From: Bryobacteraceae bacterium
Lineage (GTDB): Bacteria; Acidobacteriota; Terriglobia; Bryobacterales; Bryobacteraceae
DNA: 64,000 bases
Direction of reading: 5' to 3'
Assembly (NCBI GenBank): GCA_049514955.1
Contig: JBEKUO010000001.1
Span: 11,642-75,641, forward strand
The position numbers and the translations under genes were made by a program. Below are positions 6,745-44,293 of this stretch, one piece after another. The notes under the pieces are model-generated. The model saw only the letters and a list, made by a program, of their open reading frames with translations. It was not told where the DNA came from and made no database searches. Each line of letters starts with the position of its first letter. Positions within the stretch are counted from its first letter, which is position 1.

Positions 6745-8877
6745 TTACGTTGTGGTAACCGGCACTATAGCGGACATGGGCGACAAGTTACCGAGCGTGT
6801 CGATCGCCTGCACGCCGTAGTAGTACGTGGTCCGTGAATTCACCGTGTTGTCCGTAAACGAAGTATTTTTCGTCGCGCTGACCTGGCTCAAGCCGGAAGG
6901 CGAGGTCCCCCGGTAAATCTGGTAGCCGGCAATCGGCAGGCCGCCGGTCGAGGCCGACCAAGTCAGCTTCACCTGCGTGGCCGAGGTCGCCGTGGCCGTC
7001 AGCTTGCTGGGCGCCGATGGCAGCGCTAGCGTCGTGACTGCAATGACGTTCGACATCCCGGAACTCAGCCCGCCCGCCACCGCCTCCACCCCGTAATAAT
7101 AGGTGGTCTGCGGCGTCAGACTGTAGTTGTCGAACGAGGTGGCCGTGCCGGTCAGTTGCTGGATCTGGCTCATGCTCGTCGGAGAGTTCCCGCGGAATAC
7201 AAGATAGCTGGTAGGAATCACGCTCCCGGCCGAAGCCGACCAGGTCAGGTCGATTTGCTGGGTGGAGACCGCCGTCCCCGCCAGCTTGGTAGGCGGATTC
7301 GGAGGCGCCGAATTCGGCGTCTTGACGGCCACGACGGCCGGCTGCGATACATTGAACGCCAGATCGTACGCCTCGATCTGGTAAGTATACGTCGTGTATC
7401 CCGAAAGCCCCGTGTCCTGAAATTGTGTTAGTTCAGTGGTGGTGAGCGGCACCCCATTGCGCCACACGTAGTACCCTGCAACACCCACGTTATCCGTGGA
7501 GGCGCCCCAGCTCACGTTCACGGCTGACGGACTCACGGCGATGGCTGTGGGGTTGGTGGGAGTCGACGGCGGAATCGTATCCGGGGGTGAGACGATCGAC
7601 TGGTAATAACTTATCCCCGTGCTGCTATAGCTGCCTTGCTGCATTACCAGAGCCGATTGGGAAACTTCCTGGCTGAATAGCTGACTGGGTAACAGATTCG
7701 AAAGGCTGATGCTGTATGTCAGGTAGGCCGAAAGCTCTTGCGTATCGAACGGGTTCATGAAGATCATCTTGGAGTAATTAGCCAGATTCACGATCGTCTG
7801 CAGGAACGCTGTGTCCTCCGGTTCCCAAAAGCTGAAGGCCTCACGCGACTCCTGCGTATCCCCGCTCAGCACACCCCATTCACTGTTCCGGACCTTCCGC
7901 AGCCAGGTCTGCGACAGCGTCACCGGCTTGCCCGCCGCTTGGGCCATGCTGACGATGGTCAAGGCATTTTGCCAAAAGTTGTCGTTCGTCGGTGGCCCCA
8001 ACTCGTTGATCGGAAAGATGTGCATGTCGATGAAGTCCAGCGGGACGGTCACACAGGGCTGCGTAGACGAACACTGCTGGTCGGTGAAGCCGGCGATAAA
8101 CCCCTGAAAGCCCGTTAGCCACGATCCCACGCCAGCGCCTATCTTCATGTTCGGCACCCTCGCCTGCAGAACGCTGCTTGCGGTCTGGTCCAACATGCTT
8201 ATGGAACCGCTGACAGTGTTAACGTTGGTTTGCCCGGATTGCGTGGCTTCGGTGTCAGGCTCTTCCTGCAGCACGTAGTAATCCGGCTGCATCGTCTGGG
8301 CCACGACTTGCGCGGCCTGCGCGCGGGCCGCCTGATATTGGGTCCAGTTCAGAGTCGGGTAAAACGCCGCCACCTGCGGGCCCCATCCGGACCCCAGACC
8401 GCTGGGCATCATGCTCTGGCTTTCGACGATGAGCTTGAAGCCCTCCGCTCGCACCGCCGCCGCCACTTGCGCATAAAAACTAACGTATTGCTGATAATCC
8501 GTCTGGCTCGAAAAAAACGGCTCGTACAACATGGGAAAACTGACTTCCACGGCAACGGCTTGAACCCCAAGAGCTTTTAGCATCGTAAGGTCGTTCTGTA
8601 CGGATCGCATGCCGCTCAGTAACTGCGGCCCGTTGTTGGAATTGGCATTCGTCAACTCTCCTGTATAGAGGACCGGATATTTAGATCCGTTCCAAAGACC
8701 CTTGAGTGCGGTATTGAAATCGCTGAGGTCACTGTTGAGCGTGTTATAGAGATCCTGATAAACCGGGGGCACCGGCGGCGCTTGACCCCGACAGGAAGGC
8801 AAGATGGACAGCATCAGAATCGTCACCAGACAGGGGACAGACTCCGGCAATGCAAAACAGCGTAAGATAGGCTTCAT
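6745..8877 (-). CDS. secreted glycoside-hydrolase-like TIM-barrel protein with three C-terminal fibronectin type III domains
   Basis: Signal peptide MKPILRCFALPESVPCLVTILMLSILPSC follows the ATG at 8877; the longest ORF starts at 8991. The N-terminal half is colinear with the 1528-3567 protein (YYVLQEEPDTEA versus VFVIVHEPTTA). Three FN3 units carry LTWSAS...Y.Y/FRG...TYYYGV motifs. Confidence 0.7.
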   Translation of the reverse strand: MKPILRCFALPESVPCLVTILMLSILPSCRGQAPPVPPVYQDLYNTLNSDLSDFNTALKGLWNGSKYPVLYTGELTNANSNNGPQLLSGMRSVQNDLTMLKALGVQAVAVEVSFPMLYEPFFSSQTDYQQYVSFYAQVAAAVRAEGFKLIVESQSMMPSGLGSGWGPQVAAFYPTLNWTQYQAARAQAAQVVAQTMQPDYYVLQEEPDTEATQSGQTNVNTVSGSISMLDQTASSVLQARVPNMKIGAGVGSWLTGFQGFIAGFTDQQCSSTQPCVTVPLDFIDMHIFPINELGPPTNDNFWQNALTIVSMAQAAGKPVTLSQTWLRKVRNSEWGVLSGDTQESREAFSFWEPEDTAFLQTIVNLANYSKMIFMNPFDTQELSAYLTYSISLSNLLPSQLFSQEVSQSALVMQQGSYSSTGISYYQSIVSPPDTIPPSTPTNPTAIAVSPSAVNVSWGASTDNVGVAGYYVWRNGVPLTTTELTQFQDTGLSGYTTYTYQIEAYDLAFNVSQPAVVAVKTPNSAPPNPPTKLAGTAVSTQQIDLTWSASAGSVIPTSYLVFRGNSPTSMSQIQQLTGTATSFDNYSLTPQTTYYYGVEAVAGGLSSGMSNVIAVTTLALPSAPSKLTATATSATQVKLTWSASTGGLPIAGYQIYRGTSPSGLSQVSATKNTSFTDNTVNSRTTYYYGVQAIDTLGNLSPMSAIVPVTTT

Positions 8878-9514: not shown

Positions 9515-10375
9515 TCAGTACATCTCGGGATCTTGCAGGCTGTAGCCGAATGCCCGCACGCGGGGCTCATAGCGCGCGATCCAGTCCTGGACGGAAGCCC
9601 TGGTTTCCGGGTTTGTCGCCATTTCCGCCCATTGCGCAAAGTATCTTTGGTTGTGTTCGGTGGTGGCTTCAAATGTGGTTGGATGCGGTTCTACCCCCAA
9701 AACCGCATAGATCTTGCTTAACGCAGCGTCCGGCGCGGCGATTAGGGTCTCGTACTTCACCGTTACAGCCCGCTTCAGGTGTTTCTGGTCCGCTTCCGCG
9801 ATCTCGTGCGCTACCAGCCAGTGTTCGATTAGCGAATCCAGGCTCCGCGTGCTCCATTTAGTCGTTGCTAGCGAAACGGCAACCGGATGCCGCACGATGG
9901 TTACGAAATAGGTTTGCGGGAAAGCGCTCTGTAGGAAACGCGTCATCAGAATATTGGGGGTAGATTTCTCTAGCAGATAGCGCTTCGAGAGGTCCCAGTA
10001 AGGAAACCAGTCGAGAGCCAGTTGCGCTTTGTTGTCCGGCGTCAGCAACTCGGATTCCTCGGTGAGATGCGCTCCGGGGGAAAAGGCAAAGCTGCCGGGG
10101 CCTCCGTAAACGATCCCCGGGGGATAGACCGACTGCAGGAATTGGCCCTCATCCTCCAGGGCCAGCCATTCGGTGGCGACCTGATTGTTCGTGAAGCCGC
10201 TCATCGCGGGATGCTCCCGCAACATCCGGAACAGCAAAGTGGTGCCGCTACGATGCAGCCCGCAACAAAACACGAAATGGTGCGCCTGCGCGATCTCGCG
10301 AGCCTGTTCCAGACTGAGCGCGCTGGCCGGACCTGTGGTAGGCGTCGTCATCGGTTCCCGGGATTCCCGCTGCAT
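9515..10375 (-). CDS. sulfotransferase family protein
   Basis: PAPS-binding 5'-PSB-like loop CCGLHRSGTTLLFRMLREHP. Size (about 286 aa) and overall pattern fit cytosolic/polysaccharide sulfotransferases. Confidence 0.6.
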   Translation of the reverse strand: MQRESREPMTTPTTGPASALSLEQAREIAQAHHFVFCCGLHRSGTTLLFRMLREHPAMSGFTNNQVATEWLALEDEGQFLQSVYPPGIVYGGPGSFAFSPGAHLTEESELLTPDNKAQLALDWFPYWDLSKRYLLEKSTPNILMTRFLQSAFPQTYFVTIVRHPVAVSLATTKWSTRSLDSLIEHWLVAHEIAEADQKHLKRAVTVKYETLIAAPDAALSKIYAVLGVEPHPTTFEATTEHNQRYFAQWAEMATNPETRASVQDWIARYEPRVRAFGYSLQDPEMY

Positions 10376-11284: not shown

Positions 11285-11340
11285 GCGCACCCTGCGCATC
11301 CTACCCCTGGGGTCGAATCGGACATAGGGGTGCACGCCCG

Positions 11341-12456
11341 ATGCGAATTACTATCGACGCCGTTCCCCTGCTGGTGCGCAGCGCGGGCGTCAAGAATTAC
11401 CTGTTCCACTGGATCGTGCACCTGCGGCGCTTGCTGGGCGCTGCACAGGTCCAGCTTTTTCCTATCCTGGACCGCCTGCCGGAGCTGAATCATGAGGGCT
11501 CCATCGCGGGTCCGCCAGGAACGCTCGCCCGCCAGGGTCTGCTCTATGCGCTGAACCTATGGCCCAATCACGCCTGGGACTGGATCGGTCCCGCGGCCGA
11601 CATCTTCCATGCGACAAAGTTGCTAAATCCGCCGCGCCGCCCCCGCCTCACCGCCACCCTGCACGATATGACCTGCTGGCTCCTGCCCGAATTCCACCAG
11701 CCCGCCAACGTGGCCGCCGAGAAGCGCTTCGCTGGGCAGATCTGGAAACGGGCCGCCGGCCTGATCGCGGTTTCCGAGAACACCCGCCGCGATGCCGTGC
11801 GGGTGCTCGGTTTGAACCCGGACAACATCCGGGTGATCTATCCCGGAGTGCCGGAACCATATTTTCAAGCCACCATTGAGACAGGCGTCGCCACGCGGCA
11901 AAGGTATGGACTCTCGCGCCCGTACGTCCTGTACGTAGGAACCGTCGAGCCCCGCAAAAATCTGGATTGCCTGCTGGATGCCTGGCGAACTCTGGCCGCC
12001 CCAGTGCGCGACGAGTTCGCGCTGGTATTAGCCGGTCCGGAAGGCTGGCGGTCCGCTGCCACCATGGCCCGGTTGCGGAGCCCCACCGCGGGCGTACACT
12101 ACCTGGGTTATGTGCCCGAATACGATCTGCCGGATATCACCGCTGGCGCGGCAGTCTTCATTTATCCGTCGCTTTATGAAGGCTTCGGTTTTCCCGTCGC
12201 GCAAGCCATGGCGGCCGGCGTGCCCGTAATCACTTCAAATCTATCGTCGCTGCCGGAGGTGACTGGTGGCGCAGCGGCGCTCATCGATCCTCGCAGCCCG
12301 GCGGAGATGTGCGCTGCGCTCGACCGCCTGCTCACCTCGGCGGCCACGAGTACCCAATTGGCGGAAGCCGGCAGAGTCCAGGCGCAGCGTTTCCGTTGGG
12401 ACACCTGCGCCCGCCAGTCGTTGGAGTTTTTCGCGAAGATCGCGGGCCCTGCGTAG
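11341..12456 (+). CDS. glycosyltransferase family 1 (GT4-type)
   Basis: C-terminal GT-B motif YPSLYEGFGFPVAQAMAAGVPVITSNLSSLPEV. Length is 371 aa. Confidence 0.8.
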   Translation: MRITIDAVPLLVRSAGVKNYLFHWIVHLRRLLGAAQVQLFPILDRLPELNHEGSIAGPPGTLARQGLLYALNLWPNHAWDWIGPAADIFHATKLLNPPRRPRLTATLHDMTCWLLPEFHQPANVAAEKRFAGQIWKRAAGLIAVSENTRRDAVRVLGLNPDNIRVIYPGVPEPYFQATIETGVATRQRYGLSRPYVLYVGTVEPRKNLDCLLDAWRTLAAPVRDEFALVLAGPEGWRSAATMARLRSPTAGVHYLGYVPEYDLPDITAGAAVFIYPSLYEGFGFPVAQAMAAGVPVITSNLSSLPEVTGGAAALIDPRSPAEMCAALDRLLTSAATSTQLAEAGRVQAQRFRWDTCARQSLEFFAKIAGPA

Positions 12457-12753
12457 CTGCTAGCTTAGCTAGGTCCCCTGGCGAACTCGTCCAGCGCCTC
12501 ACCCAGACCCAGGCAGGTGCAACAGGAATAGTCCGCGCGCAGCCCGGCACCGCAGCCATAGATAGGATATCCTGATGCCCCAGCGGTGTTTTTCCGTTCG
12601 CCGGGGGTCCCATCGAAAAGCAGAGAGCCAGCCTGTGGGAACAGACACAACTTAACGGACTTCCCTGCCCCGCCATGGTATTGCTGTAATTGAACCCTGT
12701 GGTCGATTCAGCCCCTGGAGCACCAAACTTTCATCACTTTCATTACTTATGTG

Positions 12754-12782
12754 TTGACATCACCAGTATTGCCCACTAGGAT
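12754..12782 (+). promoter_or_regulatory. sigma70-like promoter candidate (TTGACA-17 nt-TAGGAT) for the HTH-ParA operon
   Basis: TTGACA at 12754-12759, a 17-nt spacer, then TAGGAT at 12777-12782, about 19 nt before the ATG at 12801. It is preceded by the adjacent direct repeat CTTTCATCA/CTTTCATTA (about 12728-12747) in an AT-richer patch. Confidence 0.4.
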
Positions 12783-12800
12783 CGGGAATGTGGGCTGCTA

Positions 12801-13001
12801 ATGAAATGTCGTGTGGAACCATACCTAACATCCCAGGAGGTTGCCGACGTCCTGGGAATTACCAAGCGCACGCTGATGAACTGGCTGCGCACGCAAAAAA
12901 TCCAGGAGCCGGAGCGCAATCAGATGAACCGCTACCGGCGCTGGACCGCGCAGGATGTAGAGCGTATCCGGCAAACCATCGCGGAGAAAAATAGTGATTA
13001 A
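12801..13001 (+). CDS. MerR/excisionase-family helix-turn-helix DNA-binding protein (66 aa)
   Basis: LTSQEVADVLGITKRTLMNWLRTQKI...RYRRWTAQDVERI matches the HTH_17/excisionase-type pattern. Its stop overlaps the downstream ParA GTG start by 8 nt. Confidence 0.65.
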   Translation: MKCRVEPYLTSQEVADVLGITKRTLMNWLRTQKIQEPERNQMNRYRRWTAQDVERIRQTIAEKNSD

Positions 13002-13797
13002 GCTGGTGATTTCAAACCAACGAGGCGGCGTGGCTAAGACGACCACTGCCACGACGCTGGCGCGGTTGTGGGCCGACCAGGGTCATAAGGTACTGCTGAT
13101 CGACACCGATCCGCAAGGGTCGGTGGGTATGTCCCTGGGCCTGAAGGCAGACAAGTTCCTGCACCATTTCGTGGTCTACAACCACCTGTTCGAGAGCTGC
13201 CTGGTACACGCAGCGCCGAACATCGACGTGCTTTGCAGCAGCCGCGAGACCATCCAGGCGGAGGCTTCTCTGATGGGGGTGCCTGCGCGGGAGATGTCCT
13301 TTTCCCTGCTCTTCTCCAGGGTCGACGAGCCTTACGATGTCGTGCTGATCGATGTGGCGCCGTCCATCACGTTGATGCAGACCTGCGCCATGGTTTACGC
13401 GCAGCGTGTGCTGATCCCGGTCAGCATGGACACGCTCAGCCTCCAGGGCGCGGGTGCCTGCCTGGAGACCGCGCGCATGATGAACGAACTCTTTCGCGTC
13501 AACGTACAGCCGGCGGCCCTTTTGCCGGTCATGGTTGACCGGCGCTTTCAGCACACCGCTGTAATGATGAAATCGCTGGAGGACCTGTCGGCCAAATTCA
13601 GCCTTCCGCTGCTGCCGGCGATCCGAACCGACGTGACGGTCTCCAAATGCGGCCGCGCGCGCCAGTTCCTGGCGGATTACGACCCGAAGTGCAAGGCCAT
13701 GGAAGATTACGAGACTGCGGGAGCGCAACTGTGGGAGCTGCTCAATGAGCGAGCCGACCAAGGAAAATCCGAAAACGTCCAAACGGTCCAGGCGTAA
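12994..13797 (+). CDS. ParA/Soj/MinD-family P-loop ATPase
   Basis: Deviant Walker A region ISNQRGGVAKTTTATTLA, then LLIDTDPQGS, VVLIDVAPS and RVLIPVSMDTLSLQG, colinear with ParA/Soj. The signature lysine position is Arg (RGGVAKTT instead of KGGxGKTT). Confidence 0.85.
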   Translation: MIKLVISNQRGGVAKTTTATTLARLWADQGHKVLLIDTDPQGSVGMSLGLKADKFLHHFVVYNHLFESCLVHAAPNIDVLCSSRETIQAEASLMGVPAREMSFSLLFSRVDEPYDVVLIDVAPSITLMQTCAMVYAQRVLIPVSMDTLSLQGAGACLETARMMNELFRVNVQPAALLPVMVDRRFQHTAVMMKSLEDLSAKFSLPLLPAIRTDVTVSKCGRARQFLADYDPKCKAMEDYETAGAQLWELLNERADQGKSENVQTVQA

Positions 13798-13804
13798 GCC
13801 GGCG

Positions 13805-14878
13805 ATGGAACCGCTCGGCTGGGACGAGATTGTCAGCCAGCCGGGGATGGGCGGCTATCTGTCGTTTTTGAATGGCCCGGTTCCCCTGCCCCACCTTGGA
13901 CGGGCCCCTGCAGTCGAAACGACCCCAGGACCCGTGAGCGGCCCTGTGGTTGTAACACCGGGCGACTTGGCAGCTCCCGATACAAACCCAGGGGCTGGCA
14001 GCACCCCGGGGGTTGAATCAATCTCAGCAAGCACCTCGGCTAAAGGGGCTGAAACAACCCCAGGAATCGAACCTGTTGCGACCCCTCTGTCTCCATCACT
14101 TGCAGGGCTTGCAGCAACCCCAGGGGTTGGTCAACCTGCTCGGCCCTTCGGCACACTGTCAAGCCCAAAGGTCGAACCAACCCCAGGGACTGCTGGCACT
14201 CCTGGTCTCGCCTCGATCTCTGGGTCCGACTCGATTGAAGGAGTTGAAACAACCCCAGTAATCGAAAGCTCTACGACGCATTCAACCGCACCAACAACAG
14301 GGCTCGCAACAGCCCCAGGGGTTGATCGCTCGCTCGCCCCCTCGCCCGCTCGCCCGCTCGGTGCCCTATCAGGGCCAGAGCTCGAAACAACCCCAGGGTC
14401 TGATAACCGGCCTCATCGCTCCCACAGCAACCCAACCCCTGAGGTCATTTCGATTCCTGCCGTTCCACCGGGCCCCCGCCTGCGCATTCGCAAATGTATT
14501 GCCGCGCAGGATGGGCACTCGCTCGGAGAAGAGGTCCTCTATCAGGCACTCTGGAAGACGGCCACGCCGGAATCCGACGAGACTCGCACTATCGTAATCG
14601 GCTGGCGGGGTATGTCGCAGATTTGCCGGATGACACCTAAGAACTGCAAAATCAACACCCAGCGGCTCATTCGCAAGCTGGCCTTGGAGGTCCTGTCGCC
14701 TTACAACACGCCGGAGTCCATCGGCACCACGTACCGCGTTTACGCGAGCGATGCCATCTTACGGCGGCGGCGCTCAGCGGGACTGGAATGGGTTGTGCGG
14801 AGCAGGGGAGTCGAGTTTGTCGACCCCACAACGGGGCAAATGCATTCTGCCCATCTGTGCGGATACGTATCAGAGTAG
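13805..14878 (+). CDS. hypothetical protein: Pro/Thr/Gly-rich repeat N-terminal region plus C-terminal winged-helix-like region (possible ParA partner/adaptor)
   Basis: The ATG at 13805 is 8 nt after the ParA stop; a longer ORF starts at 13745. N-terminal region has about 200 aa of ETTPG/ATPGV repeats. C-terminal region reads GWRGMSQICRMTPKNCKINTQRLIRKLALEVL, which looks HTH-like. I recognise no family. Confidence 0.55.
   Translation: MEPLGWDEIVSQPGMGGYLSFLNGPVPLPHLGRAPAVETTPGPVSGPVVVTPGDLAAPDTNPGAGSTPGVESISASTSAKGAETTPGIEPVATPLSPSLAGLAATPGVGQPARPFGTLSSPKVEPTPGTAGTPGLASISGSDSIEGVETTPVIESSTTHSTAPTTGLATAPGVDRSLAPSPARPLGALSGPELETTPGSDNRPHRSHSNPTPEVISIPAVPPGPRLRIRKCIAAQDGHSLGEEVLYQALWKTATPESDETRTIVIGWRGMSQICRMTPKNCKINTQRLIRKLALEVLSPYNTPESIGTTYRVYASDAILRRRRSAGLEWVVRSRGVEFVDPTTGQMHSAHLCGYVSE
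13913..14400 (+). repeat. intragenic tandem repeats (GAAAC(A/G)ACCCCAGG core; two ~195-nt/65-aa units)
   Basis: The core recurs at about 13913, 14051, 14113, 14170, 14246, 14306 and 14381. At protein level, ETTPGIEPVATPLSPSLAGLAATPGVGQPARPFGTLSSPKVE aligns with ETTPVIESSTTHSTAPTTGLATAPGVDRSLAPSPARPLGALSGPELE. Confidence 0.8.
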
Positions 14879-14945
14879 CCTTAGCTGCTGCAAGCCAAAA
14901 AATTCTTGGATTTGCGGACTCCTGTCGCCACTTTCCTAGTTAAGC

Positions 14946-15968
14946 GTGCACATCTGTGTTGTCGGCGGCATCTTCGATAAGCCGGCGCATTACCGGTCGA
15001 AGCATTCCATCTCTCCCGAGACGGTGCTGGCCGCGGGATTGCGCGAGCGCGGTTGGCAGGTAACGGCCTGCGGACACCGCAACCCGCTGCCAACGGGCGA
15101 CTTCGATGTCGTGCATGTGCACCACTTCGGACGGGCGGCGCTACGCATGGCGCTAAGTCGGAAGCGCGTGCCCTTCGTGTTCACGACCCACGACCCATTT
15201 TCGATGAACGGGCTGCCGGTGGGTTGGAAACGGCGGCTGACAGACGCGCTGGTGCTGCGCCGGGCCGATAGAGTGGTGGCGCTTTCCAACGCGGAGCGCA
15301 GTTTTCTGCTCCGGCAATATGGGCTACCGCCGAGCTCGGTCGCGGTGATTCCGAACGGCATCGATACCCGCGTGTTCGGTGGCGCCGCGGAGGCGCCGCA
15401 GGGCGGGGAACAGCGGCTTCTATTCGCCGGTCAACTGCAAAAGTTCAAAGGGCTGGACTACCTGATCGAGGCGCTGCCGGCGGTGCGCGCCGCCTACCCC
15501 TGGGTGAAGTTGCAGGTAGTGTACCAGACAGACGCGCTCCTGAAGCATTACCGGGCGCATACGGCGAGCCTGGGACTGGATGGGAGAGTCGAGTTCGCCG
15601 GGCCCAAGACCGCGCGCGAACTCGCGCAACTCTACTCGGCAGCAGCCGTGGTGGTATCGCCGAGTCTGGGCGAGTGCCTCTCCACTGTAGTCCTGGAGGC
15701 CATGTGCTGCGGAGCGGCGGTGGTGGCGACCGATGTGGGCAGCATACGGGAACAACTGGACGAAGCCACCGGCGTGATCGTGCCGCCGCGGGATTCCGGC
15801 GCGCTGGCGGAGGCCATCTGTGGCTTGCTGGCGGCAGGCGATCTGCGGTGGACCATCGGACAGGCAGCGCGGCGGAAAGCCCGTACGGAATTCACGATCA
15901 AGAAGATGATCGACCGTCACGTGCGGCTCTACGAGGAGTTGCTGGGGGCCGATGAGCGCGCCGCATAG
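14946..15968 (+). CDS. glycosyltransferase family 1 (GT4-type)
   Basis: GTG start. GT-B pattern SPSLGECLSTVVLEAMCCGAAVVATDVGSIRE. Length is 340 aa. Confidence 0.8.
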   Translation: MHICVVGGIFDKPAHYRSKHSISPETVLAAGLRERGWQVTACGHRNPLPTGDFDVVHVHHFGRAALRMALSRKRVPFVFTTHDPFSMNGLPVGWKRRLTDALVLRRADRVVALSNAERSFLLRQYGLPPSSVAVIPNGIDTRVFGGAAEAPQGGEQRLLFAGQLQKFKGLDYLIEALPAVRAAYPWVKLQVVYQTDALLKHYRAHTASLGLDGRVEFAGPKTARELAQLYSAAAVVVSPSLGECLSTVVLEAMCCGAAVVATDVGSIREQLDEATGVIVPPRDSGALAEAICGLLAAGDLRWTIGQAARRKARTEFTIKKMIDRHVRLYEELLGADERAA

Positions 15969-27666: not shown

Positions 27667-28230
27667 ATGGCCAAAGCCCCCATCAGCTCCGCAACCGGGA
27701 ATCTGCCCGTACCCGCTGAAGTCATTGAACGGCGGATCTACCTCATCCGCGGCCAGAAGGTCATGCTCGACAGTGATCTCGCTGAACTCTACCAGGTACT
27801 CACGAAGAACTTGAACCTGGCGGTGCGCCGCAACCTCGACCGCTTCCCTGAAGACTTCATGTTCCAGCTCACCCAGGACGAGTTCCAAAACTTGAGGTTG
27901 CAATCTGCAACCTCAAGTTCAGGCTACGGCGGCCGTCGCTACTTGCCTTATGCATTCACCGAGCACGGCGTGGCCATGCTGTCTTCGGTTCTGAGCAGTA
28001 AGCAGGCCGTACAGATGAACATCGTCATCATCCGCGCGTTCGTCAAGCTCCGCGAGGTTCTTGCCACGCACAAAGACCTCGCCGCTCGAATGGAAAAGCT
28101 GGAAGCCGCCCAGAAGCAGCACGGCTCGATCATTGCCGTTGTAGTTGAAGAGATCAAAAAGCTAAAACAGCCATCTCCGACTCCTCCAAAACGACGCATC
28201 GGCTTTACCATTGATGACCCGAAGGCCTAA
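27667..28230 (+). CDS. ORF6N (KilA-N-related) domain DNA-binding protein
   Basis: IERRIYLIRGQKVMLDSDLAELYQVLTKNLNLAVRRNLDRFPEDFMFQLTQDEFQNLRLQ is the characteristic ORF6N pattern, followed by a C-terminal coiled-coil-like tail. Starts 7 nt after the WecA-like stop. Confidence 0.75.
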   Translation: MAKAPISSATGNLPVPAEVIERRIYLIRGQKVMLDSDLAELYQVLTKNLNLAVRRNLDRFPEDFMFQLTQDEFQNLRLQSATSSSGYGGRRYLPYAFTEHGVAMLSSVLSSKQAVQMNIVIIRAFVKLREVLATHKDLAARMEKLEAAQKQHGSIIAVVVEEIKKLKQPSPTPPKRRIGFTIDDPKA

Positions 28231-30422: not shown

Positions 30423-32510
30423 CTACGACTTTCCCACCGCTCCAACGATGAAGTCCACTTCCTGACCCGGCTGCGCGCTGCTTGGCGCAAAATTGTAATT
30501 CGGGCCGCTCATCAGGCGGATGTGGAAGGCATGCCGGGCCCTTCCGGCCTGGAACATTCCGGTCTTGTTCCTTTTCGCGTCTTTTACCGCGGTGGTGCTG
30601 AAGGTGTGCACGCCATCGTTGGCCTTGAAACTGGCCTTCCCCCGGGAGACGCTCAGCCATCCTTGGCAAGTAGTAATAAAGTTGTCACTATGATCGTGAT
30701 ACACCAAAAAACTCGCCACTCCGCCCTTGTCAAGCGCGGCACGATAGTTGATAAATGCATCTGCCGGTTGATTCAGGTAGTAGAGCTCGATTTTGGCGAG
30801 TGCGTTGTAAGCCTGCCAGCGCGACGGATTCGCCTGAATCGCGCTGTTCAGCAGTGTCTGCGCGTCGGTATATAGGACGTTGTTGATCTTCACCTCCGCC
30901 TGCCTGAGCAGCTCGTCGTAGCTCGTAACAACTGGCGCGGGTGGCGGCACGACCGGCGCGGGCGCAGGCTCGACCGGCGCGGGCGCAGGCGTAACGGCGA
31001 CCACCGGCGCTGGTGCCGGCGGCGCCGGTTTCTCCACTGTTACCGGCTGTGGCTCCGGCGCCACCGGATTCTCCGCCTGCGCCTCGAGCGCGCGCTGGCG
31101 CTCCTCGTCGCTTTGCGGAATGCCTGCCGCTTGGGTCGGCCACTGTGTGGACCCTGCGGCCGGCGTAGGGCTCGTAGCCCCTGGCGCAGGGGTCGTGGAA
31201 CCCGACTCAGGGGTTGTAGAACTTGCCGTGGTTGTCGGCCGGTGCCTATGACGGTACCAGTAGATAGAGCCGCCGGTGGCTGCCAGCGCGACGATTGCAA
31301 TCAGAAGCGCGAGGACCAACCACTTCGGCAACGTCCGGCGGACGCGTGGCGGCGGTGGCGGCGCCACAGGCGCTGCGGGGACAGGGCCGGCTATGACCTG
31401 CGGCGCTGGCGGCCCTGGCGGTGGAACAACAGCCGGTGGCTGAGCGGGGGCCACTGGTGCCAGTATCAGCGTCTCAACCAGTGTCCGCCGGGTCTCATCC
31501 AATGCCCGCGTCTCACTCAGAACAGTTACCGGCGCAGGACGAGGGACGGGGAGATTGCCCGTAAGGGCGCTCTTGAAATCCTCCATCGATTGGAATCGGT
31601 CGCCGGCGCGCACGGCCAGCCCCTTCATCAATGCGATCTCCGCGGAAGCCGGAATGCTGACTCCCAGTTGGGAGGGGCTTTCCAGCGTGTCCGCAGCCAG
31701 CCTGTCGATCGAAGCTGGCGGGACCTTCCCGGTGACGGCGCGATAGAGCGTGGCGGCAGTGGCATACACGTCGGTCCATGGGCCTTGAATGCCGTTCGAC
31801 CGGTACTGCTCTTCCGGAGAGTATCCCCCTCTCATGATCACCGAGAGGTTCCGGCTCCTTTGGCTGAGCGCATTGCGCGCCGCGCCAAAATCGATCAGCT
31901 TCACTTTGCCCGTCCTGGGGATGTAGATGTTGTCCGGGCTGACGTCGCGATGCAGGATGTTCTCGGCGTGCACGGCGCTCAAGGCGTCCATCACCGGCAG
32001 CATGATACGGAGCGCCTCCTCGAAAGGGATCGTTCCGCCGCGGCGGCGCAGAAGCTCCTCGAATGTCATGCCCTCGAGGTACTCCATCACCAGGTAAGCC
32101 GTACCGTTATCGCGGAAAACGGTGTCGACCGCCACGATATTGGGGTGATTGCACTTCTTCAGCACGCGCGCCTACTCGAGGAAGCGCTCCAGTCCCCATT
32201 CGTACTCCGGCTTGGTTATGTCGGAGAACGGCAGGACTTTGCTTTGCCCCGTGCGGCCGGCAATGCCATTCGGCATGTACTCTTTTATGGCGAGGCGCGT
32301 TTGCAGGCCGATATCCCAGGCCAGATAGGTGATGCCAAAGCCGCCGTGGCCGAGCGCGCGCCCGATCACGTATTGATCGCGCAAAACCGTGCGCGGCGGC
32401 AGCATCAGGGTGTTGCTGACAGTGGGATGGAAGGGTGACCCACACTTGGGGCAGATCGTGCTGCCGGAATCGTCTTCCAGGCAACTGACGCACATGGTTT
32501 CGAGATTCAT
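30423..32510 (-). pseudogene. Ser/Thr protein kinase (N-terminal zinc-ribbon, TM, Pro-rich linker, C-terminal TPR-like/unknown domain) interrupted by an in-frame TAG
   Basis: ORF 32172-32510 carries CVSC...CPKC, the glycine loop GHGGFGITY and AIKEY. The same frame continues after the TAG (32172-32174) with ARVLKKCNHPNIV, HRDVSPDNIYI, DFGAAR and GYSPEE. ...ERFLE*ARVLKK corresponds to the canonical FLxEARxL segment. Confidence 0.8.
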
Positions 32511-32533
32511 AATCCGTTCTCCATTATGTGTCG

Positions 32534-34405
32534 TTAGTGCTTCTTGGGCGGGGCTTTCGGCGGAGGCGCGGGCGCGCGTTGCGGCTGCGTGTGCTGCTGC
32601 GGCTGCATGCGCTGCTGCGGCTGCGTGCGCTGTGGTTGGGTCTGCGTCCGCTGCGGTTGGGTCTGCGTCCGCTGTGGTTGGGTCTGCGTCCGCTGTTGCT
32701 GATTCTGCGTGTGCTGCGGCTGGGTCTGGGTCCGCTGTTGCTGATTCTGCGTGTGCTGCGGCTGGGTCTGCGTCCGCTGCTGTTGGTTCTGCGTGTGCTG
32801 TGGCTGAGTCTGCGTGTGCTGCGGCTGGGTCTGCGTCCGCTGCTGTTGATTCTGCGTGTGCTGTGGCTGGGTCTGCGTCCGCTGCGGCTGAGTCTGCGTG
32901 CGCTGTTGCTGATTCTGTGTGCGCTGCGGCTGCGTCTGGGTCCGCTGTTGCTGATTCTGCGTGCGTTGTGGCTGGGTCTGCGTCCGCTGCTGCGTCTGTG
33001 TGCGCGGCGCAGAAGACGTGGGCCGCGTCGAAGGCGTCCGGTTCGCCACAACATTACGGCTCGCGATCTTAGACGGCGCGCCGTGCGCCGATCCGTGCGG
33101 CCCCAGACGCGCCTCCTTCGTAGGCTCCACATTGGACCGCGGGCCCACTTTCGCCTTCGCGTTGGCCGCCGCCGGAACGTGCACAGAGTCCTTGCCGACC
33201 GGGTGTCCACTCGCGACGTCGCTGCGCCGCGCAGCGGTCAGGGCCGATGCGCGGTTCATATAGTGCTGCCGCGCCGCATCCGGGTGGGCCAGCACTTTGC
33301 GATCCACGGGCACCGCGTTGGTTGCGTTGACCTGCTCCAGGTACCCGGCGCTTACGGTGTACGCCGGCACCCACACTTCGCCGGGGCCTAGCGGGAACCA
33401 GCCGAGCACCGCGTCGGCCAGTACGACGCCCGCTCCAAAATCGGCGAATGCCACCAGTGCGGGTGCGTAGTAGGGGCGAATTACGAACACCCCGGGAGTC
33501 TCGGGCTTCCCGGGAGTCCAGCCCCAGGCGCCGTCAACCTGCACCCAACGCCCGAAATGAAACGGCGCGTAACCCCAGGGCGCGTCGTCCACCCAGGTCC
33601 AGCCCCACGGATCCACAAAGACCCAATGGCCCACGCGGTACGGGGCCCATTGCGCATCTACGTTGGGAAACCAAACCGGGCCGTACGGGTCGACGGTGCG
33701 CCAATTGCCATTGGCATCCAGATCGGCGTAGCCGGGGATGTCGCGCGAAATGTTTGTCGCCGTGGCCGACGAGTCCTCGCGCCCGTCCCGTTCGATGCAC
33801 CAGGCGTCAAACGGATCGGTGGCGGGCGCGTCGAGCGGTTCGGTATTCGCAGCGGTCACCCGCACCTGCTTGCCCTCGGCGACCGGCGTAATCTGGCCGC
33901 CGGCGTTGATCTCGGCGTCGCCCATCCGCACCGTGACCAGAGTGGTATCGCCCTGCTCGCTGACCTCCACGCGATAGGCGCCAAAGCGTTTCAAGGTAAA
34001 GGAAAGTTGCGGCGTGTCGATCTCAAAGACCTCATCGGCAGCCAGATCGTGCAGCCGCACGTTCAGGATGCCGCTCGCAATTTTGATGTGGGTAACCGCG
34101 TCGCCCAGTTCCACAAAAGCGAAATCCGTGCGTCCTCCGAAGCGCATGGCGGCATTGTCCGTCTGCAATTCGGCACGGCCGTTGTCTTCGGTCCAGAACT
34201 CGTCGCCGGTGGTCATCGGGCGGTTCAGCTCCGCCGGAGTCCAGTCGTCTACGCCGGCGGGTTTGAAGGTAACCGTGCCTTCGAAATACCCGAGACGCGC
34301 GGCGCGCCGCGGCGGGTCGGCGTTCTGCGGCAGCGCGGGCGTGGCCGCAACGGCTCCCAGAATGACGAACGCCGCAAATCTCTTAAGCATTTCCTGTCTC
34401 TCCAC
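32534..34405 (-). CDS. secreted FecR-like/DUF6600-like protein with Gln/Thr-rich heptad-repeat tail
   Basis: Signal peptide MLKRFAAFVILGAVAATPALPQ. Then GYFEGTVTFKPAG.DDWTPAELNRPMTTGDEFWTE..GRAELQ (FecR-like) and a Trp-rich block WGWTWVDDAPWGYAPFHFGRWV..GAWGWTPG. The C-terminus has about 21 copies of (R/H)TQ(T/N)Q(P/Q)Q. Confidence 0.7.
   Translation of the reverse strand: MERQEMLKRFAAFVILGAVAATPALPQNADPPRRAARLGYFEGTVTFKPAGVDDWTPAELNRPMTTGDEFWTEDNGRAELQTDNAAMRFGGRTDFAFVELGDAVTHIKIASGILNVRLHDLAADEVFEIDTPQLSFTLKRFGAYRVEVSEQGDTTLVTVRMGDAEINAGGQITPVAEGKQVRVTAANTEPLDAPATDPFDAWCIERDGREDSSATATNISRDIPGYADLDANGNWRTVDPYGPVWFPNVDAQWAPYRVGHWVFVDPWGWTWVDDAPWGYAPFHFGRWVQVDGAWGWTPGKPETPGVFVIRPYYAPALVAFADFGAGVVLADAVLGWFPLGPGEVWVPAYTVSAGYLEQVNATNAVPVDRKVLAHPDAARQHYMNRASALTAARRSDVASGHPVGKDSVHVPAAANAKAKVGPRSNVEPTKEARLGPHGSAHGAPSKIASRNVVANRTPSTRPTSSAPRTQTQQRTQTQPQRTQNQQQRTQTQPQRTQNQQQRTQTQPQRTQTQPQHTQNQQQRTQTQPQHTQTQPQHTQNQQQRTQTQPQHTQNQQQRTQTQPQHTQNQQQRTQTQPQRTQTQPQRTQTQPQRTQPQQRMQPQQHTQPQRAPAPPPKAPPKKH
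32579..33010 (-). repeat. 21-nt coding tandem repeat array (~20 units) encoding (R/H)TQ(T/N)Q(P/Q)Q
   Basis: Visible as ctgcggctgggtctgcgtccg / ctgttgctgattctgcgtgtg variants on the + strand. It generates long spurious ORFs in several other frames. Confidence 0.9.
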
Positions 34406-34468
34406 CTCGACTCTACCACTGACGGGCCCGATCGCAGGCTAACTGCGAGCTTGCTGACTCCGTCCCGA

Positions 34469-36292
34469 CTAAGGTAACTCCCCCATGCAACGGAACCCCA
34501 CATCGCTGGCGCGGCTCTCCGGCGCACCCTGGGAACGGGCCGAGACGCGAACGCCGTCCGCACGCATGTCCCAGGCCCCGCCGCGCAGCACATGCCCGGC
34601 GCCGCCGTCCGGACCTTTGGGATCCGCTCCGGGGCTCGCCTGGTAGTAGCCGCTGCCGTAGAAGTCGGCAGTCCACTCCCACACATTCCCCAGCATGTCG
34701 TACAAGCCGTACCCGTTCGGCTTCTTTTTGGCGACCGGCTGCGGCGCATTCCCGCTGTTATCTCCGTCCCAGGCGATAGCGTCGAGAGCTCCGTATCGCG
34801 ATCGCACATTTCCGCCCCGTGCCGCGAACTCCCATTCCGCCTCAGTGGGCAAACGCAGTCCCGCCCATTCGCAATAACCGGCGGCTTCCTGCCAGGTCAC
34901 CGACACTGCGGGAAGATCTCCTCCTCCCGTTCCCGTGGCGCGCGTATAGCGCTGGTATGCGCCCGCAGTCACCTCCGTCTGCCCCATCCAGAATCCCTGG
35001 CTGATGCTGACTTCGTGCACCGGTTTCTCGTCGGCGGCGCACGTGGCGTCGCCCGGCGAGCACCCCATGCGAAAAGTCCCTGCCGGGATCCACACGTACG
35101 GCAGGCCGTCTTTTGAGTTGGTCCGCACTTCACCCAGGCTCCCCGCCCGCGCAGGACCAGGGGCGGGTGACGGGTGCGACTCAGGCGCCGTTGGCTGATG
35201 CGACCGGAAAAGGAAAATCCAAACAATCGCGGCCAACAGCAGGCACGCCGCCACACCCGCAGCCAGCCACATTCCGGTCTTGCGGGGCTTTGGTGGCGCG
35301 ATGGGCGTGATCTGCACCGTGGGAACGGCCGGTACGACCGCCGTTACTGGCGCCGTCGGCATAACTGCCGCGACGGGCGGCACCGTCTGTCTTGTCGGAG
35401 GGCTCTCTTCCTCCCACACGCCGCCCCCCTGGACCGCGGGCGAGGAGAGCGCCGCAATGAGATCCGCGGCGGTCTGAAATCTTTCCTCTGAATTCTGTTT
35501 CAGACAGCGCAGGATCGCGCTCTCCCATTGCGGGTCCAGGTCCGGAACGAACTGCCGGGGCGGAGGCGCTTGCGGACGAACGTACGCCGCCTCCGGAAAC
35601 GGTCGCCGGCCGGCGACCATTTCATACATCACGATGCCCAGCGCAAAAATGTCCGTCGCTGGTGTGAGCGTGCCCAGGGTAAGTTGCTCGGGAGACATAT
35701 ACGCTGGAGTGCCGACGATATGGCCGACCATCGTCACGTTGCCGGCGGTATCCTCCATGCTGCGCGCCAGTCCGAAATCCGTGACCACCACACGGATCCC
35801 GTTTCCCTTGCCCGTTGGCGTCAGCATGACGTTTGCGGGCTTGAAATCCCGGTGTACGATGCCCACTTCATGTGCCGCATCGAGGGCCGCAGCCATTTGC
35901 ATGACGAGAGGGCCCGCCTCCTGGGTGCTCATGCGCCCCCGGCTCAACCGGTCGGCGAGGTTCTCACCTTGCAGCATTTCCATGGTGAGGAACATCATTC
36001 CGGGTTCCCCGGATGCTGGGTTTCCTGGCGTGATGTGGAGATCGTATATCCGGCAAACATTGGGATGCGTGACCTGCTTGGCCGTCTGCACTTCCCGCTT
36101 GAATCGGGCAGTGGCCTGCGCATTGGAGGCGATATCCGGCCGTATGGTCTTCAGGGCCACGCGCCCGCCCAGATTCAGATCTTCCCCCTCATATACGTCT
36201 CCCATACCGCCGCGTCCGAGCCGGCGCACGATCCGGAACCGGCCTGCCAGTACGTCGCCTGCGCGCAGGCCCAACTCAGGAATTTGGACCAT
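34469..36292 (-). CDS. Ser/Thr protein kinase with TM segment and C-terminal FGE-sulfatase (SUMF1/DUF323) domain
   Basis: Kinase motifs GRGGMGDVYEG, VALKTI, HRDFKPANVML, DFGLAR and YMSPEQ. FGE-domain motifs RLPTEAEWEFAARGG, YGLYDMLGNVWEWTADFY, VLRGGAW and GFRCM. Confidence 0.9.
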   Translation of the reverse strand: MVQIPELGLRAGDVLAGRFRIVRRLGRGGMGDVYEGEDLNLGGRVALKTIRPDIASNAQATARFKREVQTAKQVTHPNVCRIYDLHITPGNPASGEPGMMFLTMEMLQGENLADRLSRGRMSTQEAGPLVMQMAAALDAAHEVGIVHRDFKPANVMLTPTGKGNGIRVVVTDFGLARSMEDTAGNVTMVGHIVGTPAYMSPEQLTLGTLTPATDIFALGIVMYEMVAGRRPFPEAAYVRPQAPPPRQFVPDLDPQWESAILRCLKQNSEERFQTAADLIAALSSPAVQGGGVWEEESPPTRQTVPPVAAVMPTAPVTAVVPAVPTVQITPIAPPKPRKTGMWLAAGVAACLLLAAIVWIFLFRSHQPTAPESHPSPAPGPARAGSLGEVRTNSKDGLPYVWIPAGTFRMGCSPGDATCAADEKPVHEVSISQGFWMGQTEVTAGAYQRYTRATGTGGGDLPAVSVTWQEAAGYCEWAGLRLPTEAEWEFAARGGNVRSRYGALDAIAWDGDNSGNAPQPVAKKKPNGYGLYDMLGNVWEWTADFYGSGYYQASPGADPKGPDGGAGHVLRGGAWDMRADGVRVSARSQGAPESRASDVGFRCMGELP

Positions 36293-43742: not shown

Positions 43743-43944
43743 AACGTATGGCGGTTTTGCGTGCTTCGGCGTAAACCAGGGCGTCGTAGCGTGTGCTCAA
43801 GCGTAACCAGGAGGCCCAATCTATGTGCTTGACCGTAAGCAGCACGCTCTCGAACTGGTGCATTGCTTTGCCAAGCTACTGAAAATACAAGGTTTCTTTC
43901 GCTACGCTCAAACCCACTCCTGGATGAGGTTCATTTTGAACGGG

Positions 43945-44018
43945 TTACGGTCTTCTTATGGTCGGGCACACACTCTTTACGATCAAACCCATGGCGCTTA
44001 CGGTCAAACACACGGCAC
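43945..44018 (+). repeat. iteron-like direct repeats TTACG(G/A)TC(AAAC) upstream of the Rep gene
   Basis: TTACGGTC at 43945. TTACGATCAAACCCATGGCGC at 43977-43997 is immediately followed by TTACGGTCAAACACACGGCAC at 43998-44018, a 21-nt period. A further copy TTACGATCAAACACACA is at 43694-43710. TTATGGTC variants occur at about 43956 and 44108. Confidence 0.5.
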
Positions 44019-44293
44019 AAAAACGCTTGCTTTCACTGTAAGTGTTTGTAAAATAAAGTAGTTGTCCTCGCATCTCTATCTCGGCGACGCATGTATATGG
44101 AATGGTCTTATGGTTTGGTAACCCTAACGGAAGATAGCACTGGTGCGGTGTACAAGGCTGTTTGTGGATGGCTGGCGTGTGCTTACCAATAAAAATACCG
44201 CAAAGCCACGGGCTTCATCGTAAATCGCTAGAACAGAACATCGAAGAAATGTTAAAAAACAGATGATGCAGTCTGCGTTCTAAGGCATACAAC

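Follow-up and report, generated by a model that had tools for sequence, protein, structure and literature searches.

What does an operon that pairs a ParA-type ATPase with predicted DNA-binding proteins do in the middle of a polysaccharide locus? The genes that raise this question lie, in the order small helix-turn-helix (HTH) gene, parA and gene 3 (together, the trio), in a 64-kb stretch of DNA from a Bryobacteraceae bacterium (Acidobacteriota; assembly GCA_049514955.1, contig JBEKUO010000001.1, positions 11,642 to 75,641). We call this whole stretch the window and count all positions from its first letter. A first-pass annotation made from the sequence had left two readings of the trio: a partition cassette of the plasmid or integrative and conjugative element type, with an undescribed non-ParB adaptor, or a ParA-driven system that positions the envelope polysaccharide machinery. 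We consider it probable that the locus serves DNA partition, as a complete module of type-I-like (Walker-type ParA) character that regulates its own expression, includes a new kind of centromere-binding protein and derives from acidobacterial plasmid or integrative-element maintenance cassettes. The first of the two readings is thereby supported in kind, by the predicted fold and basic N-terminus of the gene 3 protein, an array of palindromes and the rep and recombinase neighbors of distant trios. Feature coordinates are collected in Table 1; L-numbers denote related loci and P-numbers homologues of gene 3.

Gene 3 is central to this reading. The first-pass annotation placed it 8 nt after parA; the gap to the ATG at 13805 is 7 nt, and the most likely start of the gene is an ATG at 13745, from which it overlaps the 3′ end of parA by 53 nt. 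This start is favored because the ATG (or GTG) and the GGAG before it are conserved in 14 loci, the additional peptide thus gained (..NPK.SKRSKRKPA) is also conserved, and a Leu takes the place of the 13805 Met in the homologue P0027. Read from 13745, the protein begins with a basic, structure-poor segment (KRSRRKP...GMGGYLSFL) that is almost invariant in the alignment (MSEP..KRSKRKPAMEPLGWDEIVSQPGMGGYLSFLNGPVPLPHL), continues with a low-complexity linker that varies widely in length and sequence among homologues, and ends in a conserved domain of about 130 aa. The GMGGYLSFL stretch after the basic cluster is one that we take to resemble, at the level of sequence, the LG(R/K)GLxALL of chromosomal ParB N-termini. 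The Pro/Thr/Gly-rich region and C-terminal HTH-like segment that the first-pass annotation had seen are both there, the latter being predicted by AlphaFold2 as a winged HTH (wHTH) with an extra strand pair (predicted local distance difference test [pLDDT] score, 91.2; predicted template modeling score, 0.84). The full-length model is of low confidence (pLDDT 44), and residues 1-259 have no predicted regular structure.

The protein was also suspected to lie outside the ParB, ParG and ParR families, and this is what we found: there was no match to these, to KorB or to any other family at E ≤ 0.1 in Pfam, NCBIfam, PHROG or PADLOC. Neither a ParBc domain nor a ParB-type HTH was detected with these four libraries, no PDB match was better than E = 0.2, and the predicted winged fold with its added strand pair is not the ribbon-helix-helix of ParG, omega and ParR. 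A PDB profile search with the wHTH returned only chance-level matches, such as chromodomains at E of about 0.2, and the idea of a chromo-like domain was dropped for this reason. Foldseek searches of PDB and BFVD gave generic MarR and CAP matches and weak initiator-type wHTH matches (the RepA_N N-domain, a staphylococcal Rep-DNA complex, the lambda O N-terminal domain, RepL and replisome organizers), all at E > 1e-3. A profile search of metagenomes, on the other hand, recovered representatives of 1030 clusters at 50% identity, of which 752 had E ≤ 1e-10. These proteins have lengths of 118 to 758 aa, and no Pfam domain was present in any of those tested. With no library match and this many cluster representatives, the wHTH protein therefore belongs to a large unannotated family that is none of the above.

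The first-pass annotation took the Pro/Thr/Gly repeat of the linker for a feature of the protein. The evidence indicates that it is largely a feature of the DNA, the peptide being the translation of copies of a 23-bp palindrome on which selection would act at the DNA level. The words AACCCCAGG and ACCCCWGGGGT are concentrated at 13.9 to 14.45 kb, where adjacent palindromes often overlap by their outer 5 nt, which gives an 18-bp spacing. Across the 64-kb window, the 17-mer ACCCCWGGGGTYGAWTC matched 16 times at up to three mismatches (0.8 expected), and 15 of these matches fell in three places, namely the gene 3 linker, 12693-12721 and 11297-11319. When the 23-mer GAWWCRACCCCWGGGGTYGWWTC was scanned at up to four mismatches over the window and 13 related Bryobacteraceae loci, 33 matches were found, compared with 0.15 in shuffled sequence. 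All but two lay in the linker, past the end of gene 3 or about 112 to 120 nt before the start codon of the HTH gene, the remaining pair being the window site before a GT4 glycosyltransferase gene and an intergenic site in L001. A strict scan for perfect palindromes missed the sites of L006 and L008, which were recovered by k-mer and mismatch-tolerant searches.

The case for a DNA-level feature is made because the palindromes also occur where they are not translated, or are translated differently. Besides the non-coding copy upstream of the operon, L001 has a short linker and at least eight sites as an array in a 750-nt non-coding stretch past the stop codon, with spacings that are not multiples of 3. 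L006 has a different 23-bp palindrome, GAAAGGGATACSGTATCCCTTTC, in both orientations within its linkers and again after the stop codon, the orientations encoding different peptides (ERDTVP versus DTASLS or GTVSFS). Other lineages carry the palindromes TCAGGTRYACCTGA, CGGGTRYACCCG and AGGGTRYACCCT flanking the wHTH-coding segment, each far above expectation. Codon choice in the window linker likewise follows the palindrome: the Pro codon CCA is used in 7 of 11 PG motifs, Gly GGG at 46% and Val GTT at 50%, versus 10%, 18% and 12%, respectively, in 12 neighboring genes. An alternative would be that the peptide repeat, for example a Pro/Thr-rich spacer, is what is selected, the DNA motif being a by-product and the outside matches chance. 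It would fit the window well enough, where the in-gene copies are all in one frame and encode (E)TTPG(V/I)-like peptides, but it is hard to square with a site upstream of the promoter that is recognizable in most of 12 loci, with the non-coding arrays of L001 and L006, with the different peptides of the two L006 orientations, with codon usage tied to the palindrome or with 33 matches where 0.15 are expected, and we regard it as very unlikely. We propose instead that the copies within gene 3 form a centromere-like cluster of sites.

These palindromes are assigned to the wHTH of gene 3 rather than to the small HTH protein, by co-occurrence and co-variation only. The assignment follows from L008, where the recognition helix is near-identical (LTPKNCKLNTHRLLRKLA versus MTPKNCKINTQRLIRKLA) and the same GACCCCWGGGGTC core is found although ParA is only 54% identical, and from L005 and L019, which have a wHTH gene with arrays and no tblastn match to the HTH or ParA of the window. 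In the latter two loci (L005, 2794-4151; L019, 5873-8011), TCAGGTRYACCTGA arrays flank the gene for the gene 3-type wHTH protein; that of L005 lies downstream of genes for a 137-aa AAA_22-type protein and a 105-aa ORF (open reading frame), and L019 has ORFs of 137 and 106 aa, so that a different NTPase may be the partner of the same kind of DNA-binding protein there. In L008, two further GACCCCWGGGGTC-type sites, 18 bp apart, lie at 8122-8152, right after the tyrosine-recombinase gene past the trio, and may mark an element boundary or a recombination site.

The region upstream of the trio has the appearance of a control region. The near-consensus promoter, the adjacent direct repeat and the AT-richer patch that had been described there are all present, the patch having a GC content of 0.535 at 12600-12999 versus 0.62-0.65 in the flanks. 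A promoter scan of 12300-15200 gave 2 promoter-like sites against 0.4 expected, and the TTGAC and TA..AT of the promoter are invariant across 12 aligned loci. The order common to these 12 Bryobacteraceae loci is palindrome, TTTCAYTAC direct repeats, TTGACA, 17 nt, TAnnAT and ATGAA. The TTTCA..ACTTTCAT of the direct repeats is invariant in 5 loci and near-invariant in the 12; the distal palindrome, by the strict 23-mer criterion of at most four mismatches, scores in 4 of the 13 loci in which the upstream region is covered. Distant loci have the same layout in other sequences, with different 9-bp direct repeats at the equivalent position (CAGTTTATA in L006, GGGTTTAY in L022 and L023) and, in L022, L023 and L008, a distinct palindrome of their own at the equivalent place upstream. 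From this co-occurrence and co-variation we propose that the direct repeats are the operator of the small HTH protein and the distal palindrome an autoregulatory binding site of the gene 3 wHTH protein.

ORFs and family matches confirm the 66-aa MerR/excisionase-type HTH protein and the 8-nt overlap of its gene with a GTG-started parA. The overlap is 8 or 4 nt (ATGA-type) depending on the locus, the HTH being a separate ORF in a different frame in all loci seen. A programmed frameshift fusing the HTH to ParA was considered and given up in favor of simple translational coupling, because a −1 shift meets a TAG at once and other loci have the 4-nt ATGA overlap. On the TIGR03453 model (type Ia RepA), the small HTH aligns to positions 34-88 and ParA to positions 108-279 (scores, 24.5 and 51.9 bits; cut-off, 348), which makes the two collinear with type Ia ParA, but as the products of two translationally coupled genes. 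ParA also matches CbiA (5e-17); among solved structures, it is closest to a mycobacterial ParA-like protein and Thermus Soj. Its Walker A motif, NQRGGVAKTT (13018-13041, ParA residues 9-16), reads NQRGGV(A/G/S)KTT over the related loci; 17 of 18 loci have Arg at the signature position, and only L008 has the Lys.

Taken together, a Walker-type ParA, an overlapping gene for a DNA-binding partner with a basic N-terminus, a cluster of palindromes in cis and an operator-like promoter make up the parts list of a type I partition system. In the ParABS, SopABC and ParFGH systems the partner activates ParA. By analogy, gene 3 dimers would bind the 23-bp palindromes through their C-terminal wHTH, and the roughly ten sites within the linker DNA would nucleate, on the locus, a nucleoprotein complex resembling a centromere. 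Through its basic N-terminal peptide (..KRSRRKPAMEPLGWDEIVSQPGMGGYLSFL..), gene 3 would contact nucleoid-bound ParA-ATP and stimulate its ATPase, and a diffusion ratchet of the usual kind would thereby move or position the array-carrying DNA. The small HTH protein, equivalent to the N-terminal HTH of type Ia ParA, would bind the direct repeats beside the −35 box and gene 3 the distal palindrome, the two jointly repressing the operon as in known par operons. The cargo would thus be DNA, either the locus itself or the replicon that carries it, and not the polysaccharide machinery. Site binding, stimulation of the ParA ATPase and stabilization of a replicon are the functions that we infer for the trio.

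Several points weigh against this interpretation. ParA carries Arg at the usual signature-Lys position. The in-gene sites of the window are all in one frame, which fits in-frame duplication and peptide-repeat selection alike, and the pairings of palindrome with wHTH and of direct repeat with small HTH are drawn from co-occurrence and co-variation only. The fold matches lean weakly to the wHTH domains of replication initiators and not to known centromere-binding proteins. The module lies among chromosomal-looking genes, where there is no known need for active partition. Finally, a tblastn search of the PLSDB plasmids with the wHTH gave no match and a scan of IMG/VR no relative; the link to plasmids therefore rests on the rep and integrase genes that neighbor related trios in metagenomic contigs.

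Among known systems, type Ia par loci (P1 ParABS, F SopABC, repABC RepA/RepB) share with the trio a Walker-type ParA followed in one operon by a DNA-binding partner, for which a ParA-contacting N-terminus is proposed here too, and a multi-copy centromere in cis, here a candidate one. The downstream array of L001 is placed as is sopC, the par-par-rep order of L023 is that of repABC, and the small HTH, being collinear with the N-terminal HTH of type Ia ParA, could autoregulate. Unlike in those systems, the HTH is a separate 66-aa protein not fused to the ATPase, ParA is small and Soj-sized with Arg at the signature Lys, the partner belongs to a new wHTH family and is no ParB, having no ParBc/CTPase domain, and the centromere-like array lies mostly within the partner's coding sequence. 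Type Ib systems (TP228 ParFGH, pSM19035 delta/omega) also have a small ParA that lacks an N-terminal HTH, a small partner whose N-terminal tail is flexible and basic, and repeated sites upstream of the operon, theirs serving autoregulation and partition; their partners are ribbon-helix-helix proteins, however, whereas gene 3 has a predicted wHTH.

A closer parallel in architecture is the ParA-ParT-parS system of the Streptomyces plasmid SCP2, in which a non-canonical partner without CTPase activates ParA by a basic unstructured N-terminus and carries parS in its own coding sequence (PMC12260392). The same work describes the activation of ParA by ParB-like partners through a basic, unstructured N-terminal peptide (PMC12260392). 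ParT differs in keeping a ParB-type HTH middle domain, a C-terminal dimerization domain and a single 18-bp parS (PMC12260392), in contrast to the unrelated wHTH of gene 3 and its roughly ten sites in linker DNA that dictate peptide repeats.

The weak fold matches raise the alternative that gene 3 is, or derives from, a replication initiator with in-gene origin repeats, the array being an origin or incompatibility determinant. Lambda O with ori-lambda and the RepA_N proteins have their site arrays in the linker-coding DNA of their own wHTH genes, DNA and peptide repeats coinciding as in gene 3, together with an extra C-terminal domain. Long-form relatives of gene 3 share this layout. P0076, P0078, P0079, P0082, P0097 and P0179 have an additional conserved C-terminal domain (e.g., L006, 6770-7173) with the pattern ..C...PD....EI..F...K......NPxGFLLxAVPKCFEG.., after which come a charged helix and DDP...ED+; neither PDB nor Pfam has a match to it. 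This domain weakly matches the C-terminus of NF040582, the STY4528 "pathogenicity island replication protein" (E = 0.03-0.04), and has the NPxGFLL motif (NPPGFLLTAI) in common with the RPA protein of L008. An initiator-like role is accordingly a real possibility for the long-form relatives. For the window we judge it distinctly unlikely, since the similarities, those of the fold included, are all below significance, the protein ends after the wHTH without the C-terminal domain or any recognized Rep or effector domain, and the array, with a GC content of 0.61-0.63, is not AT-rich, so that no unwinding element is evident. Moreover, gene 3 overlaps parA and begins with a ParB-like basic peptide, whereas the genes of lambda O and RepA_N are not known to lie downstream of or overlap parA, and L008 and L023 have a separate RPA-type initiator beside the trio.

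If the trio is a partition module, where did it come from and is it still in use? The genome scan took one genome per species and returned nine Bryobacteraceae species, metagenomic contigs being used in addition. The trio was syntenic in at least 11 species-level Bryobacteraceae genomes, and the prospect raised in the first-pass annotation that close relatives lack it at this position did not materialize. Where the flanks are covered, the common order is MsrB, GT4, (APH, histidine kinase), HTH, ParA, gene 3, GT4, (methyltransferase), Wzx, ..., GT4, GT2 and DUF362. Identity to the window is 91-94% for ParA, 83-92% for the small HTH protein, 76-98% for the N-terminus of gene 3 and mostly 77-86% for the wHTH, compared with about 65-80% for most of the flanking polysaccharide and MsrB proteins (53-84% overall). 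The fixed position and the conservation above that of the neighbors rule out a recent random insertion and argue for continuing function. As part of the partition interpretation we propose that the module has been inherited vertically at a fixed place in the polysaccharide region under strong purifying selection. That it should be the inert remnant of an old integrated element is suggested by the missing integrase and by the short gene 3 without the C-terminal domain of relatives, but three ORFs, promoter, operator repeats and site array are intact in 14 loci and the trio proteins are better conserved than their neighbors, which makes a remnant extremely unlikely.

Related trios with a ParA about 50 to 63% identical are found in mobile-element settings. 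In L008 and L009, the order is RPA-family initiator, 167-aa ORF, trio and tyrosine recombinase; in L023, the trio is directly followed by a RepA_C/RPA-like initiator; L021 has a tyrosine recombinase, and L006 a recombinase and a Tn3-type gene. L020 combines a gene 3 homologue with a far more distant ParA-like gene (28% identity) and a tyrosine recombinase, no HTH being detected. Polysaccharide genes recur around the trio as well: L001 and L004 have a 91-93%-identical trio near Bac_transf genes and, in L001, a UDP-GlcNAc 2-epimerase gene, and a 53%-identical trio in L022 adjoins Epimerase_2 and Bac_transf. The association of trio and polysaccharide genes is thus a recurrent one.

In the window, the glycosyltransferase genes first described on both sides of the trio are of the GT4 type, and much of the window is taken up by genes for a Wzx flippase, more GT4 and GT2 enzymes, an epimerase and sugar transferases, and by a second Wzx/Wzy set. 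One alternative would be co-opted transcription control, an ex-partition operon setting or gating transcription into the downstream GT4-Wzx-polymerase-GT genes, by its strong autoregulated promoter or by the protein array bound within gene 3, with ParA as an ATP-dependent co-regulator, like that of type Ia systems. In its favor, trio and flanking polysaccharide genes point in one direction, the next GT4 gene follows gene 3 after only 61-105 nt in 11 loci, no terminator-like site is predicted in between, one perfect-core site stands 44 nt upstream of the GT4 gene at 11341, and the polysaccharide neighbors occur in several independent contexts (L001, L004, L022). The site before GT4 (11297-11319) is window-specific, however, being absent in six other species, and its interpretation as the mark of a conserved regulon was rejected on this ground. 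Likewise, the spacer between gene 3 and GT4 has a conserved element of its own, perhaps a separate promoter; what comes after the trio in L001 and L004 is a non-coding array or toxin-antitoxin genes on the opposite strand, which makes co-transcription with polysaccharide genes impossible there; and a ten-site array with a highly conserved ATPase exceeds what a repressor needs. We therefore hold transcription control to be unlikely.

The spacer element itself, AAAAATATTGGGATTACCGCC...CCGCCACTTATCTTTCCTAA, was seen in 14879-14945 and its equivalents in 10 loci. It was not recognized by the sigma-70 scan and may be a separate promoter or regulatory site of the polysaccharide operon. Around the isolated palindrome, the window also differs from L002, L003, L010, L014 and L018: within 11285-12690 it has neither the minus-strand GT2 gene between msrB and GT4 nor the APH-like and hybrid histidine-kinase genes between GT4 and the trio. 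The palindrome at 11297-11319 sits exactly at the msrB/GT4 junction where the window has no GT2 gene.

The second reading of the first-pass annotation, ParA-driven positioning of the polysaccharide export or synthesis machinery with gene 3 as a cargo adaptor, did not hold up. Its attraction is the embedding of the module in a polysaccharide locus in many species, as in BcsQ, together with features shared with McdA/McdB and BcsQ, namely an ATPase of the ParA family whose signature residue is non-standard and a partner in which a long region is of low complexity and disordered. ParA does score 27.4 bits on the Pfam CBP_BcsQ model (cut-off, 21.3), a quarter of its AAA_31 score (123.5 bits), but it remains below the cut-off of the NCBIfam BcsQ model TIGR03371 (52 versus 158 bits). 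Nor is it a polysaccharide co-polymerase tyrosine autokinase (BY-kinase), with 35.5 bits on TIGR01007 against a cut-off of 108 and a C-terminus (...ERADQGKSENVQTVQA) without Tyr. The larger ORFs scanned in the window include no bcs gene, and relatives occur in rep/integrase contexts without polysaccharide genes. Above all, the sole folded domain of the partner is a predicted DNA-binding wHTH with cognate-looking DNA sites of its own, unlike McdB and the BcsQ partners, which act on protein cargo and are not known to possess a DNA-binding domain of sequence specificity or a cognate site array; the poor conservation of the site before GT4 points the same way. We attach hardly any probability to the positioning model.

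The first-pass annotation further stated that no integrase, relaxase or phage gene accompanies the trio. A scan of the larger ORFs, covering most of the window, indeed gave no integrase, relaxase or phage structural gene; the window does contain a plasmid-type gene, an RPA-family replication initiator with iteron-like repeats, at 43.7-45.9 kb. Its product is 24-27% identical to the trfA/RPA initiators of Rubrobacter and planctomycete plasmids; many Bryobacteraceae contigs, with lengths of up to 384 kb, encode it at 84-94% identity, and the iteron-like repeats and neighboring genes are conserved in L024. The RPA gene and the trio are 30 kb apart in the window, and one 215-kb contig carries both at a distance of about 66 kb. 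GC skew over the window was too noisy for an origin call. As judged from these genes and repeats, the region would hold either parts of an old integrated plasmid that have become domesticated or genes that maintain a secondary replicon rich in polysaccharide loci, and 43690-45889 may be the origin of such a replicon or a domesticated plasmid origin.

These observations can be joined in a broader, tentative proposal, which we think possible and short of probable. A family of more than 1000 representatives would write the binding-site arrays of its wHTH into the flanking linker DNA, centromere and partner gene forming one evolving unit and peptide repeats such as TPGV, DTVP and G[IVT]P being translated lineage-specific palindromes; and the Bryobacteraceae module, together with the conserved RPA initiator and iterons 30-66 kb away, would maintain an unrecognized chromid or megaplasmid loaded with polysaccharide loci. 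Rhizobial pSymB is comparable to such a replicon.

Other genes of the window are of separate interest. An ORF6N (KilA-N/antirepressor-type) protein, a mobile-element-type gene product, is encoded at 27667-28230 (1.6e-35) among sugar-transferase genes. Two Ser/Thr protein-kinase genes occupy the minus strand at 30423-36292, one with a fused FGE-sulfatase domain, and a DUF6600 protein is encoded between them; these genes are inside the polysaccharide region, and a sulfotransferase gene is located at 9515-10375.

Table 1. Features of the trio and of the putative replication region in the 64-kb window
Feature	Position	Strand	Basis or remarks
Isolated site, perfect 17-mer ACCCCTGGGGTCGAATC	11297..11319	.	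44 nt upstream of GT4 gene starting at 11341
Distal palindromic site(s) of the in-gene-array type, AACCCTGTGGTCGATTCAGCCCCTGG	12687..12721	.	Matches 17-mer and 23-mer patterns; ~45 bp upstream of −35
9-bp direct repeats ACTTTCATC, 2.4 copies, period 9, abutting −35 (candidate operator)	12727..12748	+	Tandem Repeats Finder
Sigma-70-type promoter TTGACA-17-TAGGAT (predicted)	12754..12782	+	Promoter scan; 10/12 positions match
66-aa MerR/excisionase-type HTH protein	12801..13001	+	HTH_17 5.6e-8, MerR_1 2e-7
ParA/Soj-type deviant Walker A ATPase, 267 aa, GTG start	12994..13797	+	AAA_31 1.2e-35; PHROG 164 "ParA-like partition protein" 3.5e-41
Gene 3, 377 aa, proposed wHTH centromere-binding-type partner of ParA	13745..14878	+	Start codon conservation, wHTH model
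Gene 3, basic N-terminal peptide and ...GMGGYLSFL... motif	13745-13897	+	Homologue alignment
Gene 3, low-complexity linker	13898-14479	+	Homologue alignment
Gene 3, winged HTH	about 14480-14878	+	AlphaFold2
~10 copies of 23-bp palindrome GAWWCRACCCCWGGGGTYGWWTC in linker-coding DNA (proposed centromere-like cluster)	13916..14451	.	Word, 17-mer and 23-mer scans
Starts of the array copies	13916, 13979, 13997, 14051, 14111, 14174, 14246, 14306, 14384, 14429		
AT-richer region with iteron-like TTACGRTCAAAC repeats before RPA gene	43956, 43977, 43998		Three copies, 21-bp spacing
Further TTACGRTCAAAC copies	43694, 43902; inverted copy at about 43827		
RPA-family replication-initiator gene, 531 aa	44294-45889		PF10134 2e-5, 24.7 bits, just under 27-bit cut-off

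Partition systems are classed by their ATPase and a few partner folds: ParB, ribbon-helix-helix and, recently, ParT. Type I partition is thus already known as a kind, and so is a parS inside the partner gene, as in SCP2 parT and in Bacillus spo0J. What is new here is the partner family; the split HTH/ParA with Arg at the signature position; a whole site array in linker-coding DNA across a large family, where it generates lineage-specific peptide repeats; and the strict vertical retention of such a module in a polysaccharide super-locus. In the literature searched we found no description of the trio or of the gene 3 protein family.

If our interpretation is correct, a wHTH family abundant in soil Acidobacteriota and absent from the annotation libraries searched would be added to the partners of ParA. 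Its probable centromere would sit in the partner gene and set the sequence of the linker, DNA-site and peptide codes being superimposed and co-evolving; since the two could be separated by synonymous recoding, they would offer a clean experimental handle. For annotation there is a warning in this, as low-complexity "repeat proteins" encoded beside parA genes may hide cis-acting DNA elements. For the Bryobacteraceae themselves, the conserved module and the nearby conserved initiator with its iterons would point to a possible separate replicon for exopolysaccharide genes in these abundant, poorly cultured soil bacteria.

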